Shown: positions 1-37,914 of the stretch, piece after piece | Numbering within the stretch: the stretch's first letter is position 1 | Layout: each line of letters begins with the position of its first letter | Assembly (NCBI GenBank): GCA_964438025.1 | Contig: CAYTIK010000001.1 | Location: 47,557 to 101,584 of the forward strand | DNA: 54,028 nucleotides | Direction of reading: 5' to 3' | Origin: an uncultured Bdellovibrionales bacterium | GTDB taxonomy: Bacteria > Patescibacteriota > Minisyncoccia > Moranbacterales > UBA2206 | The notes under the pieces: model-generated | Databases searched by the model: none | The model's input: the letters and a program-made list of their open reading frames with translations, nothing else | Told to the model about the DNA's origin: nothing | Program-made: the position numbers and the translations under genes

Positions 1-1230
1 ATGGGAGGGACGTTTTCGGCGTTACCGAAAAATTATCAACAAAAATTCATTTCTGAATGTTTTCGGGCTTGTAATGACTACCCTAAAAAGTTCAAAGTTC
101 AAAGTTCAAAGTTCAAAGATTTTAATTTATTATTATCTAAAGAACAAAAAAGAAGCGAAAAAGCCAAACACCGGATTATTGGACTGACTTTGGAAACTCG
201 GCCGGATTTTATTAATGAAGCAGAAATTTTAAATTTTCGCCAGCTTGGTTGCACGCGCGTAGAACTGGGCGTGCAAAGTATCTTTAATGATGTTTTGGAA
301 ATTAATAAGCGCGGCCATAAAATAGAGGCCTCTATAGAAGCCACTAAATTATTGAAGGATGCCGGCTTCAAAATCAATTACCATATGATGCCTGGTCTCC
401 CCGGCTCTAATCCCAAAAAAGATTTTTTGATGTTTCAAAAATTATTTTCCAACCCCAATTTTCAACCGGATATGCTGAAAATTTATCCGACCGTGGTTAC
501 CAAAAATAGTGCGTTATATAAATTATGGCGCCAGGGAAAATATCAACCGCTCAATGATAACCAATTTAAAAAGTTGATTTTAAAAATTAAAAAAGAGGCC
601 ATTCCACCTTACGTTCGCATTTCCCGCCTGGTGCGCGACGTTCCCGCGACTTCCATTGTGGCCGGGCCGAAAATTTCCAACTTGCGCCAACTAATTATTC
701 CCGAGTCGCTTTGCCAGTGCATCCGTTGCCGGGAAGTGGGCAGTAATTATGCTTTAAAAGAAAAAATAATTCTCGACCGCATTGATTATCCAGCTTCCGA
801 TGGAAAAGAAATATTTTTACAGTACATTTCTAAAGATAAGCAGAAACTGTTTGCCCTGCTTCGTTTACGCATACCTAGCCTTTGCCATTCCGGACTTAAT
901 CCGGAATCTAGAGAAAAAAAAGAAAAATATTTTCTGGATTCCCGCATTCGCGGGAATGACAAGTTGTATGGATTACTACCTATTTTAAAAAATGCCGCCC
1001 TCATCCGTGAAATCCATACTTACGGCCAGCTGACCCAAATAGATAAATATGATAAGAAATCTCCCCAGCATTTCGGCCTGGGAAAGAAATTAATGGCCAC
1101 AGCAGAAAAAATCGCCAAAAAAGAGTTTCAGTTAAAGAAAATCGCCGTGATTTCCGGCATCGGCGCGCGCGGGTATTACCGTAAATTGGGTTATAGTCAA
1201 AAAGATGGCTATATGGTAAAATCGATTTAA
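1..1230 (+). CDS. elp3: Elp3-family radical-SAM/GNAT tRNA modification enzyme; N-terminus lies outside the window
   Basis: ORF is open from base 1. Radical-SAM core motifs RIIGLTLETRPD, GCTRVELGVQS, HMMPGLPG, LKIYPT. C-terminal GNAT-like FGLGKKLM...GARGYYRKLGY. Confidence 0.8.
   Translation: MGGTFSALPKNYQQKFISECFRACNDYPKKFKVQSSKFKDFNLLLSKEQKRSEKAKHRIIGLTLETRPDFINEAEILNFRQLGCTRVELGVQSIFNDVLEINKRGHKIEASIEATKLLKDAGFKINYHMMPGLPGSNPKKDFLMFQKLFSNPNFQPDMLKIYPTVVTKNSALYKLWRQGKYQPLNDNQFKKLILKIKKEAIPPYVRISRLVRDVPATSIVAGPKISNLRQLIIPESLCQCIRCREVGSNYALKEKIILDRIDYPASDGKEIFLQYISKDKQKLFALLRLRIPSLCHSGLNPESREKKEKYFLDSRIRGNDKLYGLLPILKNAALIREIHTYGQLTQIDKYDKKSPQHFGLGKKLMATAEKIAKKEFQLKKIAVISGIGARGYYRKLGYSQKDGYMVKSI
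91..118 (+). repeat. Perfect tandem heptanucleotide repeat (TTCAAAG)x4 inside the elp3 CDS
   Basis: Read directly: ttcaaag ttcaaag ttcaaag ttcaaag, translated as FKVQSSKFK. Confidence 0.9.
887..957. repeat. About 71-nt element with two 8-bp-stem GC-rich hairpins, in frame inside elp3
   Basis: ATTCCGGA-cttaa-TCCGGAAT (887-907) and ATTCCCGC-attc-GCGGGAAT (938-957), separated by an A-rich spacer. Encodes HSGLNPESREKKEKYFLDSRIRGND in the variable LRLR...ALIRE(I/L)H segment. Confidence 0.75.
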
Positions 1231-2779: not shown

Positions 2780-3071
2780 CCCCGCACTAATTTTTATTTA
2801 AAGATTTTTTTATTCTTTTTTTCAATTGAGCAAGCGCTTGGCCATGCTGTTTTATTTGTTTTTCTTTTTCCCATGCATCTTCTTCTGCAAAATAAGCTTC
2901 GTAATAAACAAGCTTCCATTTGTGATTTTTTGTATATAAAGAATGGCTATCATTATGTTGAAAAAATCTTTTTTTAAATCACTCGTACAGCCATAATATA
3001 ATTCGTTTTTTTCATTTTTTAGCACATAGAAGTAATGCATACGAATTAAAATAATAAAAGTTAGTGCGGGG
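2780..3071 (-). mobile_element. TIR-bounded GIY-YIG mini-element, copy 1 (ORF frameshifted)
   Basis: Arms CCCCGCACTAATTTTT (2780-2795) and AAAAGTTAGTGCGGGG (3056-3071) are 15/16 complementary. Same architecture and size (292 bp) as 37624-37914. Confidence 0.7.
2787..3040 (-). pseudogene. GIY-YIG (YhbQ/UPF0213-like) nuclease gene, interrupted by a 1-nt frameshift in an A7 run
   Basis: MHYFYVLKNEKNELYYGCTSDLKK continues in another frame as RFFQHNDSHSLYTKNHKWKLVYYEAYFAEEDAWEKEKQIKQHGQALAQLKKRIKKSLNKN*. The shift is at A7 (plus-strand T7, 2969-2975). About 65% identical by eye to the intact paralog at 37631-37885. Confidence 0.7.
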
Positions 3072-3112
3072 CAAGCTGTCCACAAGCGCCTTGGATATCA
3101 TTGCCAAAGCTT
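3061..3112 (-). pseudogene. Relic of an rlmN-like 3' end fused to the element arm
   Basis: Encodes KSFGNDIQGACGQLAPH*. The resident rlmN ends KSLGTDIQGACGQLTSGK* (5199-5255). The last codons and stop lie inside the TIR. Confidence 0.55.
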
Positions 3113-6342: not shown

Positions 6343-6912
6343 TTAGTTTAATCTAAAAAAGGATCTTACATTTTGATCATTTTCTATTTCACAAGCAGTT
6401 ATAATTTTAATTTCTTCTTTGCTTAAATTAAAGAAATTTCTTAAAACCCCTGCTTCCTTTTGAAAATCATATGGATAGACCCAAACACTTTTTTGCAATT
6501 GAAACAATCCCAATTCTTTGATTTTTCCTCTTAAATATTCTCTCTTTATATTATCTCTGTTTTTTATATCAAATATTAAAATTCTCCATTTTTTATCCCA
6601 TCTTTCTGGTTTTTGTATTTTCAAATCATCAATTTGATATTTCCCCGCTGCTTTTTTTCCTTCTTTGGTGAGAGAAATATAAATTTGCTTACCTCTATAT
6701 TCAAATTTTATCATATCCCTTTTTTTCAAACGATAAAAAGTATCGTAAAATTCTTTCTTCTTTTTCGCGCTGTTTACTTTATAAGAAATACTTTTTATTA
6801 TTTTCGGAAGCACACGCATGAAAAAATGCGGATCATTAGCTGAGATAATTATAGCACCCCCAATCAAAAGACTTTTAAAAATTGTTTTAGTTATTTCTTT
6901 TTTATTCAACAT
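6343..6912 (-). CDS. PaaX-like / Cas2-fold domain protein with an N-terminal hydrophobic segment and a winged-helix-like region
   Basis: WDKKWRILIFDIKNRDNIKREYLRGKIKELGLFQLQKSVWVYPYD matches the PaaX central Cas2-like pattern. Paralog at 35502-36080. Confidence 0.6.
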   Translation of the reverse strand: MLNKKEITKTIFKSLLIGGAIIISANDPHFFMRVLPKIIKSISYKVNSAKKKKEFYDTFYRLKKRDMIKFEYRGKQIYISLTKEGKKAAGKYQIDDLKIQKPERWDKKWRILIFDIKNRDNIKREYLRGKIKELGLFQLQKSVWVYPYDFQKEAGVLRNFFNLSKEEIKIITACEIENDQNVRSFFRLN

Positions 6913-6938
6913 AATCCAATATATTATTACTACTAATT

Positions 6939-7437: not shown

Positions 7438-7522
7438 AGTTTCACCTCCTTGTTATTTTATTGGATAAGAACTTAAAAAATCTTCCATCAAATCTAGCAG
7501 AGCTATGCTAAAAAGTCAATTT

Positions 7523-9352
7523 TTATTCTACTGTCACACTTTTAGCTAGATTTCTAGGCTTGTCCACATCCAAACATCTAGCTATCCCAACATAGTAAGC
7601 AAATAATTGCAAGGGAATGACGGAAAGCAATGGCGTCAGCATTTCCAAGGTTTTGGGAATATACATGACATCATCCGCCAGTTTCTGAATTTTTTTATCG
7701 CCCTTGGTCGCGATGGCGATGATTTTTCCTCCGCGTGCTTTGAGTTCCTGGAGGCCGCTTAAATTTTTTTCATAGACACTGTCACTCGGAACGATGATTA
7801 TTGAAGGAAAATTACCATCAATGAGCGCAATCGGACCATGTTTCATCTCCCCTGATGGATAGCCTTCGGCATGGACATAAGAAATTTCTTTGATTTTCAA
7901 TGCGCCCTCCAAAGCGATGGGAAAATTATATTTTCGTCCGAGATACAGCATATCTTGATACTTGGCGTATTTTTTAGCAATTTTTTTAATGTCTTTATCT
8001 TGTTTTAATATTTCTTCGATCAACCGAGGAATCCTACTCAACTCTGCGGCAATTCTTTTGCCCATTGTCAGCGCCATATCTCTTTGACGTCCTAAAAACA
8101 AAGTCAGCAAGACAAAGATTACCAGCTGTGAAGTAAAGGCTTTAGTCGAAGCCACGCCGATTTCCGGTCCAGCATGATTATAAACTCCAGCATCCGTTTC
8201 CCGCGCAATAGTTGAACCGACCGTATTAACAATTCCCAATGCCAGTGCACCTTTGTTTTTTCCTTCCCGGATAGCCGCTAAAGTATCGGCGGTTTCACCT
8301 GATTGGGAAATGGCAATAATGGCCGTGTTTTTATCCAGTTGTGTTTTACGATAACGGAATTCGCTGGCATATTCCACTTCCACGGGAATCCCGGCGTACT
8401 CTTCCAGCATATACTCGCCGACAAGTCCCGCGTGATAAGAAGTCCCACAACTGACAATAATAATCCTTTCGATGTTCCGTAATTTTTCGGAAATATCTTT
8501 GAGTCCTCCTAACTTAGCCAAACCATCTTTGACAACCAACCGACCCCTTAATGCATCAGCAATGCTGGTCGGCTGTTCAAAAATTTCCTTGAGCATAAAA
8601 TGCGCAAAGCCTTGCTTCTCCGCTTTTTCCAAAGACCAATCCAATTCCGTCGCGTCCTTATTTACCACTTTGTTTTTCGCGTTAAAAATTTCGTAATTCT
8701 CCGGCGTGATAACCGCCATTTCCCCATCTTCCAAAAAAATAACTTTATTGGTATGCCGGATAATCGCCGATGCGTCCGAAGCCACAATATATTCCTCTTT
8801 TCCGATGCCTAAAATCAGCGGGCTACCTAATCTGGCAATAATAATTTTCTGTGGTTCTTTTTTATTGATAATGGCCAAGCCGTAAGTACCCTTGATAACT
8901 CTTAGAGTTTTAATGACGGCATTTTTAAAATCGGTTTTTTTATTGAATTCTTCAATCAAATGCGCGATAACTTCCGTATCCGTTTCAGAAGAAAATTTAT
9001 GTCCTTTTTTCTCAAGACTATCTTTGAGTTCTTGATAATTTTCCACTATCCCATTATGCACCAAAAGAATATCTCCCTTGCAATCGGAATGTGGATGAGA
9101 ATTTTTGTCGCACGGTTTGCCATGAGTCGCCCAGCGCGTATGGGCGATACCTAAAAAACTGGCAATTTCCTTGCCATTAATTTTCTTTTCCAATTCCGCG
9201 ATTTTCCCAACTGCCTTAAAAGTAAAGATATTTTTTCCTGCAAAAACAGAAATTCCAGCACTGTCATAACCACGATATTCCAACCTCTTTAAGCCTTCAA
9301 TTAGGATGGGAACGGCTTGTTGTTTGCCGATATAACCAATAATTCCACACAT
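7523..9352 (-). CDS. glmS: Glutamine--fructose-6-phosphate aminotransferase
   Basis: MCGIIGY N-terminal nucleophile, two SIS domains, C-terminal KSVTVE. Confidence 0.95.
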   Translation of the reverse strand: MCGIIGYIGKQQAVPILIEGLKRLEYRGYDSAGISVFAGKNIFTFKAVGKIAELEKKINGKEIASFLGIAHTRWATHGKPCDKNSHPHSDCKGDILLVHNGIVENYQELKDSLEKKGHKFSSETDTEVIAHLIEEFNKKTDFKNAVIKTLRVIKGTYGLAIINKKEPQKIIIARLGSPLILGIGKEEYIVASDASAIIRHTNKVIFLEDGEMAVITPENYEIFNAKNKVVNKDATELDWSLEKAEKQGFAHFMLKEIFEQPTSIADALRGRLVVKDGLAKLGGLKDISEKLRNIERIIIVSCGTSYHAGLVGEYMLEEYAGIPVEVEYASEFRYRKTQLDKNTAIIAISQSGETADTLAAIREGKNKGALALGIVNTVGSTIARETDAGVYNHAGPEIGVASTKAFTSQLVIFVLLTLFLGRQRDMALTMGKRIAAELSRIPRLIEEILKQDKDIKKIAKKYAKYQDMLYLGRKYNFPIALEGALKIKEISYVHAEGYPSGEMKHGPIALIDGNFPSIIIVPSDSVYEKNLSGLQELKARGGKIIAIATKGDKKIQKLADDVMYIPKTLEMLTPLLSVIPLQLFAYYVGIARCLDVDKPRNLAKSVTVE

Positions 9353-9437: not shown

Positions 9438-10091
9438 TTATTTATTTCCTTTTATTATTCTCAAAGCTTTCTTTAAATTTTTCGCCGTAAAGTTGCAATA
9501 ACAGTTTTTTTGGTCCCAATAGCGCCCTTCTGGTCTTTTGATCAAGATAGTTATTATCTCCGGCAAACATTTTTTTACTTCTTCTATATAATGAACGCGG
9601 TCATCCAAAAATAAATATTTTTCTTTTTTTCTAGAACAATCACTTTTGTTAATAATTTTTTTAATTTCTTGGGATTTAAATATTCTAGAAATTTTAACCA
9701 CACCAAAAAAGTGGCTGATTCCTGAATTATTTATTTTTTTCTTTTGAAAATTAGGATCGCCGTGAGAAATCAAAAAAAGTTCTTTGCGGGAAAAATTTTG
9801 AAGAAGCGATTCGACATCAGAAAAAACATATTTTCGGGTATCCTTCAGAAGATTTTGAATTTTTCTCTTGAGCGCTATCTCATCGAAAGAAATAATTTTA
9901 CCGATTTTTTTCAAATGTTCCTCCAAAATATAAATTGTTTCCGGAAAATTCTGGTTATTAGGAGGATAATTATAATAATTTCGAGTATAAATATCGTCTG
10001 CTATGCCGAATTGAGAAAAAATATTCTGAAAATCAGCCCTAAAATTCCGAGTATCAAAAAGCACATCGTCGAAATCAATAAAAATTTTCAC
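9438..10091 (-). CDS. HAD-superfamily hydrolase-like protein
   Basis: Motif I IFIDFDDVLFDT near the N-terminus; otherwise weak. Confidence 0.5.
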   Translation of the reverse strand: MKIFIDFDDVLFDTRNFRADFQNIFSQFGIADDIYTRNYYNYPPNNQNFPETIYILEEHLKKIGKIISFDEIALKRKIQNLLKDTRKYVFSDVESLLQNFSRKELFLISHGDPNFQKKKINNSGISHFFGVVKISRIFKSQEIKKIINKSDCSRKKEKYLFLDDRVHYIEEVKKCLPEIITILIKRPEGRYWDQKNCYCNFTAKNLKKALRIIKGNK

Positions 10092-11086
10092 CTCGTTAAA
10101 ATTTTAATGATTATTTTGGCCAACTTCTCGCCGTCATGGCGGATAAATGACCGATGCCGGGCAATGGCATCCAGCGCGTTGCCCTTTATCTTAACTACTT
10201 TTTTACTTAATAAGTCGGCACTAATTACTTTAAATTCTTTTTTTTCTTTCCCCCATAAAACCAGCGAGTTTTTTCCTTCTTGTTTCTCATATTTTTTTAT
10301 CAAATCGACAGTTGGTTTTTTATTATTAAAGAGAATCCGATTAATTCTATTTTCCCCAATGAGTTTGTTTATTTCTCCGGCATATCTATCCAAGTCAAAT
10401 CTTTCCGTCTGTCCTTTTTTATTGGTCAGATTACAGATAAAAATTACTGGTGCCTTAGCTTTTTTAACCGCTACACTAATCCCTTTTATTAAAAGATTGG
10501 GCAAAATAGAACCAAAAAAATCTCCTGGTCCGATAATGATAACATCCGCTTTTTTTATTGCCGAGATAGCTCGCAGGTTTGGTCGTACTTTTGATTTGAG
10601 ACCAATATTTTTAATCCCAATTCTCCGAATTTCTTCATTGCTGTCCAATTCCTTTTCTCCATTAAGAATCTTGCCATTTTTAAGTTTTATCAGCAGACGC
10701 ATATCGCCTTCTGACACTGGAATAATTTCTCCGTTAACTTTTAATATTTCTGAAGCAGCAATGATTCCTTTTAAAAAACTTCCATTTGTTTTTTCCAGCG
10801 CAGAAAGAAAAAGATTGCCAAAATTATGTCCTTTCAAATCTCCACTTTCAAACCGATAATTCATCAGTTCCCGCAAATTTTTCGGCGAATTAGATAAAGC
10901 TACCAAGCATTGGCGCACATCACCCGGCGGCAAAACGCCTAACTCATCGCGCAATCTTCCGGTCGAGCCGCCATCGTCCACCATCGAAACAATAGCCGAA
11001 ATGTTAACTGGATATTTTTTCAGGCCCGAAAGTAAAGTAAAGCTGCCTGTTCCGCCTCCAATAGTTACAACATTTTTCATTTTCAT
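10088..11086 (-). CDS. yvcK: YvcK/CofD-like gluconeogenesis factor family (UPF0052)
   Basis: VVTIGGGTGSFTLLSGLK, VSMVDDGGSTGRLRDELGVLPPGDVRQCLVALS. Confidence 0.85.
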   Translation of the reverse strand: MKMKNVVTIGGGTGSFTLLSGLKKYPVNISAIVSMVDDGGSTGRLRDELGVLPPGDVRQCLVALSNSPKNLRELMNYRFESGDLKGHNFGNLFLSALEKTNGSFLKGIIAASEILKVNGEIIPVSEGDMRLLIKLKNGKILNGEKELDSNEEIRRIGIKNIGLKSKVRPNLRAISAIKKADVIIIGPGDFFGSILPNLLIKGISVAVKKAKAPVIFICNLTNKKGQTERFDLDRYAGEINKLIGENRINRILFNNKKPTVDLIKKYEKQEGKNSLVLWGKEKKEFKVISADLLSKKVVKIKGNALDAIARHRSFIRHDGEKLAKIIIKILTR

Positions 11087-21607: not shown

Positions 21608-22450
21608 TTAATGATTTTCCGCGTGATCTTGAGTGGCGATGGTCATAAAAACCAATGTCAGCATGGAAAAAATCAAAGCCTGAATAATGCCTACAATGAT
21701 TTCCAAAAAGATAAACGGCAACGGCAAAATGAAAGCGAACAATGCCATCATGGAAGCCAGCAGCACTTCGCCGGCAAAAATATTCCCAAACAACCGGAAA
21801 GACAGCGAAGCTATTTTTGCCACTTCTCCAATCACTTCCACCACTCCCACAAAAGCCTTGATAGGATTGATTAAAATTACCGCCGGATCTTTTTTAATTT
21901 TTTTGGGTATTTCCCAGAAAACTTCCAGATTGATAAATTTATTCAAATGTTTCCAAGCGCCCACCGCGACTACTCCCATAATATGTGAAAGGATGACGGC
22001 AATCAGTGCGATGGCTAAAGTTGTATTGAGATCGGCCGTCCCTCCGCGTAGCAGTGAAACAAAAACATTGTGGCCATTTCCGCTTTCTATAAATCCGATT
22101 GTGCCGATACCGGGCAAAAGTCCCAGCCAATTATTCACTAAAACGAAAAGGAATAGTGCCAGCGCTAATGGTAAAAATTTTTCGGTTTTTTTTCGTTCTC
22201 CCGTCACCGAATCGCCCAAGTTTAGCGCGCTTTCCAATAAAAATTCAAAAATGTTTTGGATGCCTCTGGGCACTTTCTTTATTTTTTTTCCGATTAAAAT
22301 AAAAAGGGTTACGAGGATGATGACCGTAACCCAACTGGTAATGAGCGAATTGGTGATGGTGAATTTTCCGATTTCCATAATCGGTTCCGCGAAGAGAGTC
22401 GCTTCGTGAGAAATTTCCGTTGACGCTAAATTGTTATTATCTTCGGTCAT
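21608..22450 (-). CDS. atpB: F0 ATP synthase a subunit
   Basis: SLSFRLFGNIFAGE motif with the essential Arg. Confidence 0.92.
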   Translation of the reverse strand: MTEDNNNLASTEISHEATLFAEPIMEIGKFTITNSLITSWVTVIILVTLFILIGKKIKKVPRGIQNIFEFLLESALNLGDSVTGERKKTEKFLPLALALFLFVLVNNWLGLLPGIGTIGFIESGNGHNVFVSLLRGGTADLNTTLAIALIAVILSHIMGVVAVGAWKHLNKFINLEVFWEIPKKIKKDPAVILINPIKAFVGVVEVIGEVAKIASLSFRLFGNIFAGEVLLASMMALFAFILPLPFIFLEIIVGIIQALIFSMLTLVFMTIATQDHAENH

Positions 22451-22730
22451 ATTTAATTGCTTCCAAATCTTTAGCTTTTTTTAATCTAGCTTCCTTTTCA
22501 ATATCTTTCATGGCTTTTAAGGCATCACGCACTATGCCGAACATCGACAAGATAAACGCAACTCCGACTGATAGTAGAAATAACCAAGGTTCCGTGCCAT
22601 ATTTCCGATCTAGCCACTTTCCGACAAACACTCCCATGATAACGGGGATTCCGATCCAGCCACTCAATCTACAAAAAAGAAATATACCCGGTTGCCACCA
22701 GGGATTATTTTTTCCGCCGTTGCTTTCCAT
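22437..22730 (-). CDS. AtpZ/AtpI-like small membrane protein heading the atp operon
   Basis: Two TM helices; overlaps the atpB start; position typical of AtpZ/AtpI. Confidence 0.65.
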   Translation of the reverse strand: MESNGGKNNPWWQPGIFLFCRLSGWIGIPVIMGVFVGKWLDRKYGTEPWLFLLSVGVAFILSMFGIVRDALKAMKDIEKEARLKKAKDLEAIKYDRR

Positions 22731-22787
22731 AAAAATATTATTTTGTACCCCAGTTATTATTTTCTACTAGGATTTAAAAAAAGTCAA

Positions 22788-22852
22788 CCCCGCACTAACT
22801 TTTTACCTTTTTTATTTTTTGCGCTTTGGCGCAGTAAAAAGTTAGTGCGGGG
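22788..22852. mobile_element. ORF-less 65-bp derivative of the GIY-YIG element (TIRs only)
   Basis: CCCCGCACTAACTTTTT (22788-22804) and AAAAAGTTAGTGCGGGG (22836-22852) are 17/17 complementary. The 31-nt loop has its own TGCGC-tttg-GCGCA hairpin. Confidence 0.75.
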
Positions 22853-22861
22853 CAAGCCCCT

Positions 22862-23728
22862 TCAAAAAACTGGTAAATCAAACAGTTTCTGCGTATTTTG
22901 CGTGGTAATTTCCGCCACTTTTTCCGGAGTTATTTGCTTTATTTTAGCGATTTTTTCAGCGACATAAGCTACATACAGCGGTTCATTGCGCTGCCCTTTA
23001 AAAGGAACGGGAGTTAAGTATGGACAATCGGTTTCCACCAGTATTTTTTCCAAGGGTATTTCTTTTATCAATCGATCAAAACTGTCCGAATACGTGATGA
23101 CTCCATTAAGTCCGATCAAAAATCCCAGTTCGATAAACTTATTTGCCGTCTTATAGCCTCCGATAAAACTATGGATTACTCCTAACTTTTTAACCGGCTT
23201 ATTTTTTAATATCTCATACAGATCGTCATAAGCATCCCAGCAATGGATAATCATAGGTTTTTCTAACTCATTGGCCAGATCAATAAATTCCGCAAAAATT
23301 TCTTTTTGCTTGGTTTTTAGTTTTTCTATGTCATCTTCTGGTTCGAAGTGATGATAATCCAATCCCACTTCCCCAATCGCCACTACTTCTTTATTTTTCG
23401 CCAAGAGGCGATATTTTTCCATATCCATCTCTTCTCCGCTGGTTGTAATTTCCGTTTTTTCCAATTCGTTATTATCTTCATAGGTAAAACTTTTCGCTTG
23501 CAAATGCACTGGGTGCGTTCCGACCGCCGCCCATAACTTCCCAGGATATTCCTTAGCGTATTTGAGCGCCCGGACGCTGGTCGAATATTGCGAACCGACA
23601 TTGATAAAAAAGACGCTTTTGTCGAAAGCTCTTCTTATCACTTCTTCCGCGTCATCCTTAAACGCGCTGAAATTTACATGGGCGTGGGTGTCGATCAACA
23701 TAAACTTTTTATTTTTTTCTATATTCAA
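22862..23728 (-). CDS. tatD: TatD-family metal-dependent hydrolase
   Basis: LIDTHAHV N-terminus, ...GEVGLDY..., ...HCW..., ...ETDCPYL. Confidence 0.9.
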   Translation of the reverse strand: MNIEKNKKFMLIDTHAHVNFSAFKDDAEEVIRRAFDKSVFFINVGSQYSTSVRALKYAKEYPGKLWAAVGTHPVHLQAKSFTYEDNNELEKTEITTSGEEMDMEKYRLLAKNKEVVAIGEVGLDYHHFEPEDDIEKLKTKQKEIFAEFIDLANELEKPMIIHCWDAYDDLYEILKNKPVKKLGVIHSFIGGYKTANKFIELGFLIGLNGVITYSDSFDRLIKEIPLEKILVETDCPYLTPVPFKGQRNEPLYVAYVAEKIAKIKQITPEKVAEITTQNTQKLFDLPVF

Positions 23729-24269
23729 TTCTTTTTTGATAAAGCTTTTCGTTAAAACCTTCCTCTTTCATATGCTTATCCTTAAGAGAAATTATCAATT
23801 TATCAATCAAATAGTTGGACTGATTTATCAAAGTTATCATTAAATTAACCGCCTTTTCTTTTTCCTTAGGAAGATTGGGGAAATCAGGGTTATCAGGTAG
23901 TGCGGGATATTTTTTTATAATAACCCAAATTACTCCCATTTCCCTTATTTCCCCAATGGATTTTTCTTTTGGCCAGATTGGAATTTTATTCTGCCTAGCG
24001 TATGACAAATAATCACCCAGAAGTTCTTCCAATGAACCCCTGGCTACTCCGCAGAGTTTTATATAGCCAGCCAGGCTTTGTTGTTTGTTTCCTTCAGCAA
24101 TATTCTGCATTCCGGAACGAGCCGCTTGAACCATTTGATCAACAGTCCTGGAAAAACGGCTAACATTTTGTTCTGTAAATTGAACGGTCAAATCATAAAT
24201 CGGAACGGTTACTTTGTAAGCTAACAAATATTCATAGCCAGCTTTTTTATTTTGATTTTCGCTTTCCAT
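23709..24269 (-). CDS. Four-helix-bundle protein (23S rRNA intervening-sequence protein family) with suffix domain
   Basis: YKVTVPIYDLTVQF..., MQNIAEGN..., ARGSLEELLGDYLSYARQN pattern. Confidence 0.65.
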   Translation of the reverse strand: MESENQNKKAGYEYLLAYKVTVPIYDLTVQFTEQNVSRFSRTVDQMVQAARSGMQNIAEGNKQQSLAGYIKLCGVARGSLEELLGDYLSYARQNKIPIWPKEKSIGEIREMGVIWVIIKKYPALPDNPDFPNLPKEKEKAVNLMITLINQSNYLIDKLIISLKDKHMKEEGFNEKLYQKRIEYRKK

Positions 24270-37623: not shown

Positions 37624-37914
37624 CCCCGCGCTAACTTTCGTTCAAAGATTTTTTGATTCTTTTTCGCAGTTGCGCCCAGGCTTGTCCGAATTGTTTAATT
37701 TGTTTTTCCCTCTCTTCAGCATCCTCTTTTGAAAGATAAGCTTCGCAATAAATAAGTTTCCATTTATGATTTTTCGTAGAAAAAGAATTGCCATTGTTAT
37801 GCTCAAAAAATCTTTTTTTTAGATTATTAGTATAGCCATAATACAATTTCTGGATTTCATTTTTAATCACGTAAAAATAATACATATAGAATAATAACGA
37901 AAGTTAGTGCGGGA
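37624..37914 (-). mobile_element. TIR-bounded GIY-YIG mini-element, intact copy
   Basis: Arms CCCCGCGCTAACTTTCGTT (37624-37642) and AACGAAAGTTAGTGCGGGA (37896-37914) are 17/19 complementary. 291 bp in total. Confidence 0.75.
37631..37885 (-). CDS. GIY-YIG nuclease family protein (YhbQ/UPF0213-like, 84 aa)
   Basis: YFYVIKN...LYYGYTNNLKKRFFEHN...CEAYLSKEDAEEREKQIK (GIY / YIG / R / E pattern). Confidence 0.85.
   Translation of the reverse strand: MYYFYVIKNEIQKLYYGYTNNLKKRFFEHNNGNSFSTKNHKWKLIYCEAYLSKEDAEEREKQIKQFGQAWAQLRKRIKKSLNES

Follow-up and report, generated by a model that had tools for sequence, protein, structure and literature searches.

We found that the 65-bp hairpin between tatD and the atp operon is one ordinary member of a repeat family that appears to be undescribed in the literature. 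From comparison of the copies and their insertion sites, we put at about three in four the probability that this family represents hairpin-ended mobile DNA cassettes of Patescibacteria, with the 65-bp copy as a non-autonomous, MITE-like member inserted at the -35 box of the atp promoter. The hairpin lies in a stretch of 54,028 nt (the window; coordinates without a contig name refer to it). The source genome, G000, has 914 kb in 40 contigs, a G+C content of 39%, and is ~86% coding. It was compared with a sister genome, G001 (Candidatus Moranbacteria).

Structure of the hairpin element at the tatD-atp locus

The element and its surroundings comprise the following features:

22788-22852, canonical orientation on the minus strand (inner hairpin beside the 5' arm): whole gene-less hairpin element, 65 bp
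22788-22806, plus strand: arm 1, CCCCGCACTAACTTTTTAC, 19 nt, with GC changed to TT relative to the family consensus ...CTTTGCAC
22807-22819, plus strand: A/T-rich linker, C-T6-A-T5, between arm 1 and the inner hairpin
22820-22833, plus strand: inner hairpin TGCGC-TTTG-GCGCA, the conserved module of genus-type copies
22834-22852, plus strand: arm 2, GTAAAAAGTTAGTGCGGGG, perfect complement of arm 1, with a compensating GC to AA change
22785-22787, plus strand: left flanking direct repeat CAA, within GTCAA (TTGAC on the other strand)
22853-22855, plus strand: right flanking direct repeat CAA, inside CAAGCCCC
22862-23728, minus strand: tatD (Pfam TatD_DNase), with its stop codon 9 nt from the element
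22437-22730, minus strand: atpZ/atpI-like gene (Pfam ATPase_gene1), first gene of the atp operon
22782-22787, minus strand: putative -35 hexamer TTGACT of the atp operon promoter, flush with the element
22759-22764, minus strand: putative -10 hexamer GAAAAT, 17 nt past the -35 hexamer; GAAAAT(A/T)A in relatives

The initial annotation had described a 65-bp inverted-repeat hairpin between tatD and the atp operon that contains no ORF, and both the sequence and the Pfam assignments of the neighbors agree with this. The AtpZ-like gene is followed by genes for the a subunit (ATP-synt_A) and c subunit of ATP synthase (Pfam). The arms are perfectly complementary as described, over 19 of 19 nt rather than 17, and the TGCGC-TTTG-GCGCA inner hairpin is present within an enclosed length of 27 nt rather than 31. 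The right flank CAAGCCCC and the arm end GGGG together form a small hairpin, GGGG-CAAG-CCCC. A 16-mer, GTTAGTGCGGGGCAAG (reverse complement CTTGCCCCGCACTAAC), recurs beside copy 1, one of the two GIY-YIG-bearing copies in the window; this recurrence had been noted before at 3061-3076 and lies at 3060-3075. The 12-mer core of the arm occurs six times in the window, against 0.09 occurrences expected. The hairpin region has a predicted RNA fold of -44.5 kcal/mol (z = -5.7), which none of 200 shuffles equaled. On the minus strand, the stem is followed on its 3' side by UUGAC and then by U7, so that the U-run begins 5 nt past the stem. The upstream neighbor of tatD (23709-24269, minus strand) encodes a protein of the 23S_rRNA_IVP family, the four-helix-bundle proteins of rRNA intervening sequences; here it lies outside any rRNA gene.

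A family of paired arms around variable interiors

A genome-wide census of short versions, a check that the initial annotation had suggested, returned 23 paired copies in the source genome with arms YCCCGCACTAACTTTGCAC...GTGCAAAGTTAGTGCGGGR, 21 of them gene-less and two with a GIY-YIG gene between the arms. We refer to this family as family A. The gene-less copies fall into size classes of about 62-71, 84-85 and 129-134 bp. All 23 copies are intergenic, after stops or before starts, and five are located between divergent gene starts. Many contigs of this assembly (C6, C13, C19, C22, C23, C25, C26, C30) start or stop within ~100-1,200 bases of a family copy. The assembly thus seems to break at these repeats, making the copy numbers for G000 lower bounds, and because it is so often broken there, a larger partner element could be missing from the 40 contigs.

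Outside the source genome, the arms were found as plus/minus pairs in 17 of 41 related genomes from several families of the order (18-mer, up to two mismatches). In a scan of 185,579 species (one genome per species), in which ~17 single exact hits are expected by chance, paired exact arm matches were restricted to Patescibacteria. A scan of IMG/VR for the family arms found none.

The arms covary. In the alignment of arms 96% of cells are paired, and both sides are changed in 11 of 19 pairs; none of 500 shuffles scored as high and slid controls collapsed. The studied copy carries a compensated arm change of its own, with CTTTTTAC/GTAAAAAG against the consensus CTTTGCAC/GTGCAAAG. Within the genus the interior comprises one hairpin, TGCGCC-N3/4-GGCGCA, placed against one arm and followed by ~13 A/T-rich bases. 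Copies of the 85-bp class have a longer inner hairpin, and those of the 130-bp class an additional A/T-rich stretch. In other genera a ~68-bp form contains two inner hairpins and so makes a three-way junction. Between copies the inner hairpins vary in sequence while their structure is kept (26 of 37 interiors with z < -2). When the gene-less interiors were compared with those of the GIY-YIG-bearing copies, we found only chance 8-14-mers, so that the two forms have only the arms in common. The earlier description of the element as a derivative of the GIY-YIG element is therefore correct for the arms and fails for the interior, where the similarity to the GIY-YIG copies is not significant.

Target duplications and empty sites

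In G000, 10 of the 23 copies stand between exact 4-bp direct repeats; over all 12 genomes the figure is 26 of 54 copies. When flank pairings were permuted 10,000 times, the mean was 3.3 and the maximum 10, compared to the 26 observed. The duplicated words are TCAA (8), TTGA (5), TTTA (4), CAAA (3) and single others, roughly T-N-N-A. The two sister genomes, with TatD proteins that are 84% identical, yielded six clean filled/empty orthologous pairs in which the empty site holds a single copy of the word:

Filled in G001, contig C16: word TTTA
Filled in G001, contig C15: word TTTA
Filled in G000, C14:22985: word TTGA
Filled in G000, C8:9679: word TAAA
Filled in G000, C34:5977: word CAAA
Filled in G000, C7:27025: word TTA

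Two sites are occupied in both genomes, C5:8155 and that of the intact GIY-YIG copy. The family is thus short, non-coding and multi-copy, has terminal inverted repeats, and shows both target duplication and insertion polymorphism. The MITE-like, non-autonomous reading offered by the initial annotation is upheld by these observations: gene-less copies carry GIY-YIG arms, have 4-bp duplications and are polymorphic between sister genomes. The studied copy itself has a direct repeat of 3 bp only (CAA/TTG; CTTG vs TTGA). This is a weakness of the insertion reading and a point against it.

Probable insertion at the -35 box of the atp promoter

A promoter scan returned TTGACT-17-GAAAAT (22787-22759, minus strand) abutting the element, and a terminator scan of the locus made no call on the hairpin. 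The initial annotation had proposed that the hairpin and the T-run behind it also serve as the terminator of tatD, and that the tatD-atp spacer should be compared in relatives. That comparison uncovered no hairpin conserved at this spacer in distant relatives. In ~12 relatives tatD is followed directly by TTGACTTTTTT...GAAAAT(A/T)A without a hairpin. The T-run is part of the promoter TTGACTTTTTT in these hairpin-free genomes and is therefore older than the insertion, which leaves the terminator reading unsupported; TTGACTTTTTTT comprises the putative -35 box of the atp promoter together with its spacer. When the element and one TTG are taken out of the locus, AGGGGCTTGACTTTTTTT is left, which resembles ...GGGGTTGACTTTTTT of the relatives. 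For annotation, a T-run after such a hairpin is insufficient for scoring a terminator.

This arrangement is not limited to the atp locus. An outward-facing TTGAC[AT] abuts 14 of the 54 copies. Seven of these sites are in G000; at six of them a -10-like hexamer follows after 17-18 nt, frequently preceded by TG, and all five sites with the downstream gene assembled point towards the gene start. These sites indicate that the usual target of the family is TTGA inside a -35 box. Since the duplicated TTGA lies within TTGAC(A/T), the -35 box is rebuilt or kept intact on the gene side. Such a preference for TTGA in -35 boxes, with the box restored, would account for the dozens of insertions that are tolerated in a streamlined genome with ~86% coding sequence. 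It would also position the elements where transcription of core operons such as atp can be reshaped. At the atp site, the studied element is probably in the main a tolerated passenger and at most a leaky barrier to read-through from tatD.

A second hairpin family at the same sites

The tatD-atp spacer of G001 contains a hairpin in the same TTGA, arranged as GGG-TTGA-[CCCTATAGTAGATTTTTGGCTT ... AAGCCAAAAAATCACTGCGGGG]-TTGA-CTTTTT. We considered whether this is a decayed orthologue of the studied copy and rejected this possibility; it is an intact-looking member of a different family (family B) with arms CCCCGTAGTRRATTTTYGGC. What is new at the tatD-atp site is that the same promoter word holds a different hairpin family in each of the two sister genomes. 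There are ~10 family B pairs in G001 and four in G000 (C16:6974-7040, C20:3918-3983, C33:1039-1095 and C10:~7440-7500). TTGA/TCAA repeats beside TTGAC were found at all four family B copies of G000 and at all three G001 copies at orthologous sites. No nuclease gene with CCCCGTAGTRRATTTTYGGC arms was seen.

Shared sites are not restricted to this locus. At 4 of the 10 family A sites of G000 that could be read in the sister genome, G001 holds a different hairpin family, three of these within the same TTGA/TCAA duplication. The G001 sites that hold another family than G000 are:

C39: tatD-atp spacer
C6:~990-1120
C17:~10056-10120
C24:~8540-8620

Family B is present in G001 at the sites of the G000 family A copies C27:5969 and C6:13474, and at the site of C29:6932 G001 holds a further arm type. 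Arm relics were also observed beside the atp -35 box in two other genera (G002, G014). These shared sites may reflect either repeated hits on a few promoters or the replacement of a resident cassette at an occupied target.

GIY-YIG-bearing copies and candidate movers

Two copies in the window have the same arms around a GIY-YIG gene:

37624-37914, minus strand: intact 84-aa ORF (37634-37885, minus strand), with the stop codon within the arm
2780-3071, minus strand: ORF frameshifted in an A-run (A7, compared to A8 in the intact copy)

The 84-aa product is a single-domain protein (Pfam GIY-YIG, E = 4.7e-14) with no NCBIfam or PADLOC match; the nearest solved structures are UPF0213 proteins, at E = 1e-3. 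GIY-YIG copies that are 65-85% identical to those of the window occur in six other genomes, all with the same arms and four of the six with 4-bp repeats (TTGA twice, TGTG twice). With the same arms and the same 4-bp repeats, the coding and gene-less forms have common ends and a common insertion signature, and the nuclease would be a candidate mover of both. Homologues at 40-50% identity have different arms, suggesting that the arms change along with the GIY-YIG subfamily. A GIY-YIG nuclease is the only protein ever found within the arms. G023 and G026 contain many family copies without a close arm-bounded GIY-YIG gene.

Other small GIY-YIG genes and other cargo were also seen. Three more small GIY-YIG genes of G000 lack long arms and each adjoins a tRNA gene (C2:538-780, C6:24309-24566 and C19:1670-1864). 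At C7:854-971, related 18-nt arms (CCCCGCACCAAAATTTGC...GCAAATTTGGTGCGGGG) with CAAG on the flanks enclose a complete tRNA gene.

Searches of the genome with the DDE Pfam families DDE_Tnp_1, rve, DDE_3, Transposase_mut and ISL3 and with the TnpB zinc-ribbon gave no match. G000 does encode three tyrosine recombinases and three Y1_Tnp proteins above the Pfam cut-off, plus one weaker Y1_Tnp fragment. The Y1 transposase genes are:

C7:15332-15700: IS200-type, with its own terminal hairpins
C20:2091-2318: RAYT-like
C17:11587-11823: RAYT-like

The palindromes around the genes at C20:2091 and C17:11587, TTGAGGACGGTCCTCAA and GTAGCGGTCCGACCGCTAC, are unlike the family arms.

Alternative explanations

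The position and strength of the stem could suggest that the element serves primarily as an intrinsic terminator of tatD, or insulates tatD and atp from each other, and merely resembles the GIY-YIG arms. A GC-closed stem of -44.5 kcal/mol that starts 9 nt past the tatD stop and has U7 5 nt behind it would fit such a role, as would the presence of a (different) hairpin element at the same spot in the sister genome. We nonetheless regard it as unlikely. The U7 belongs to the spacer of the atp promoter TTGACTTTTTT, and the ~12 relatives do without any hairpin after tatD. The terminator scan made no call, and 5 of the 23 copies are between divergent starts. At least five of six bases directly after the arm are T in only 8 of the 54 copies, and identical arms at 22 other loci, together with the target duplications, would be left unexplained. 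Another candidate is a small structured RNA gene or a cis-acting RNA, with the closing stem and inner hairpins forming a three-way junction and the copies being paralogous RNA genes. In its favor, the inner hairpins are kept with differing sequence, often with TTCG or GAA-type loops and in 26 of 37 cases with z < -2, and the arms covary. Against this, no Rfam family was recovered (searches at the gathering threshold and by E-value matched miRNA-type hairpin models only, by chance), the orientation relative to neighboring genes is mixed (~9 sense to 5 antisense), and A.C and G.T mismatches, seen on both strands, favor neither. The duplicated targets and the empty sites indicate insertion as DNA, and the interior can be a protein gene. 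We consider it very unlikely that the copies are RNA genes. A point against the cassette reading is that the inner hairpins retain their structure despite sequence change, which could also mean an RNA or ssDNA function beyond mobility.

The other reading put forward by the initial annotation, that the element is the excision or internal-deletion footprint of a GIY-YIG copy formerly at the tatD-atp site, draws on the arm core, which is that of the GIY-YIG copies, and on the 16-mer, including the CAAG flank, common to copy 1. It is hardly credible in light of the interior, a module of hairpin and A/T-linker that is common to ~20 other gene-less copies. These copies fall into size classes and have target duplications of their own, and the lack of significant similarity between their interiors and those of the GIY-YIG copies led us to reject the idea that they are footprints or deletion remnants. 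The family could also be mobile through another agent (a Y1/RAYT-type transposase, a host recombinase or an unassembled element) with the nuclease as one cargo among several. The cargo does vary, given the tRNA gene between related arms, and the Y1_Tnp and tyrosine recombinase genes of G000 provide candidates. The many copies in G023 and G026 that lack a close cognate nuclease, and family B with no nuclease, are also consistent with such an agent. However, the Y1 genes have their own unrelated palindromes and IS200/IS605 Y1 transposition produces no target duplication. The arms change together with the GIY-YIG subfamily, the nuclease is the sole protein within them, and Ssn relatives are hairpin-specific nucleases (PMC11893778). 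We judge movement by another agent to be rather improbable, though less so than the terminator or RNA readings.

Proposed mode of movement

In the model that we favor, a member has complementary arms of 19 bp each (YCCCGCACTAACTTTGCAC), and what they enclose varies: small hairpins (one or two), A/T-rich DNA of ~90 nt, or the gene for the 84-aa GIY-YIG nuclease. Insertion generates a 4-bp target duplication, most often of TTGA within TTGAC(A/T), and rebuilds the -35 box on one side; the studied copy would have come to lie 9 nt after the tatD stop and flush with the TTGACT -35 box in this way. We lean slightly towards an arm-specific, Ssn-like GIY-YIG nuclease that recognizes the hairpin and supplies the cutting in trans, with host repair presumably filling a 4-nt staggered break. 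We know of no GIY-YIG enzyme that performs transposition. More tentatively, the cassettes might form a transposon class whose sole enzyme is an Ssn-like GIY-YIG nuclease that reads TTGA plus the foot of a hairpin, with -35 boxes and already occupied sites as targets, leading to cassette exchange. If a GIY-YIG nuclease does move the cassettes, transposition would extend beyond DDE, HUH, serine and tyrosine enzymes and the Ssn family would have a biological role outside Neisseria.

Comparison with known systems

Bacterial MITEs, such as the Correia/NEMIS elements of Neisseria, are small non-coding elements in many copies that end in inverted repeats and duplicate a few bases of their target. Elements of the Correia/NEMIS type are intergenic, occur near promoters and can alter transcription. 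Known MITEs have ends in common with IS elements that encode DDE transposases. The gene-less copies resemble MITEs in being short, non-coding and multi-copy, in their terminal inverted repeats and short target duplication, and in their intergenic positions near promoters. They differ in that the only coding partner of the family is a GIY-YIG nuclease, that the target is TNNA (chiefly the TTGA of a -35 box), and that only the arms match the coding form. The family is also reminiscent of REP/BIME sequences with their RAYT (Y1) proteins and of IS200/IS605 elements, where dispersed extragenic palindromes are linked to a small, hairpin-recognizing enzyme of nuclease type. Neither REP nor IS200-type elements duplicate their target; they insert 3' of a fixed tetranucleotide. 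By contrast, the family described here does duplicate its target, and the Y1 genes of this genome have other palindromes.

A literature search turned up no account of bacterial GIY-YIG elements that have inverted repeats and duplicate their targets. Small GIY-YIG ORFs have been reported as non-intron insertions in the rRNA genes of CPR bacteria, with a spread judged not to occur by homing (Tsurumaki et al. 2024, PMC11270868). We found a comparable case in a GIY-YIG homologue that is 51% identical (L088, G030 C1:307319-307576), which is located in a 16S rRNA gene between 20-nt inverted repeats, ATGCCACACCATTCAGCTTT.... Arms, target duplications and gene-less copies are not described in that study (PMC11270868).

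The closest parallel is with Ssn, single-domain GIY-YIG proteins of the cd10448 clade that cut ssDNA beside a short hairpin repeat (Chenal et al. 2025, Nat Commun, PMC11893778). This repeat, called NTS or SRM, brackets the Ssn gene and is scattered through the genome (PMC11893778). The same work demonstrated ssDNA cutting and an effect on transformation and remarked on the IS-like layout, with no target duplication or transposition shown (PMC11893778). As with Ssn, a single-domain GIY-YIG protein of roughly 85-95 aa is encoded by a gene bracketed by a hairpin repeat, and this repeat is also dispersed in many copies that lack a gene. The outer 8 nt of the family arms (TCCCGCAC/GTGCGGGA) are the stem of a genuine short SRM, TGTCATCCCGCACTTGATGCGGGATCCAG, at C18:10301, and GTCAA precedes many family copies in the way that GTCA precedes the NTS. 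The difference is in geometry. SRMs flank the gene on either side with one hairpin each, of 20-50 nt and with a loop of 0-5 nt, whereas the family arms pair across 27-250 nt.

The SRM pattern HGTCWYN(0-2)YYVSBRHN(0-5)WNVSBRGN(0-2)RNCYNB had four matches in the genome, none of them at family A. The element misfits the pattern because 27-250 nt separate its two halves, which pair with one another. The same search recovered three genuine NTS-like short hairpins. One of them, TGTCATTCCCGCGAATGCGGGAATCCAG, at window position 934-961 (G000 C1:48490-48517, minus strand), matches the Neisseria NTS consensus almost perfectly and lies within a long ORF (1-1230); two more SRM-like short hairpins are at C18:10301 and C22:1956. 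The latter is contained in a copy of an ~85-bp repeat that recurs in the genome and also precedes the GIY-YIG gene of contig C19. A further SRM-like short hairpin, TCCCATGCTTAGCGTGGGA, lies at C29:~6900-6931, three bases before the family A copy at C29:6932. On these comparisons we would not file the element as an SRM; it appears to work both like an Ssn/repeat pair and like a MITE.
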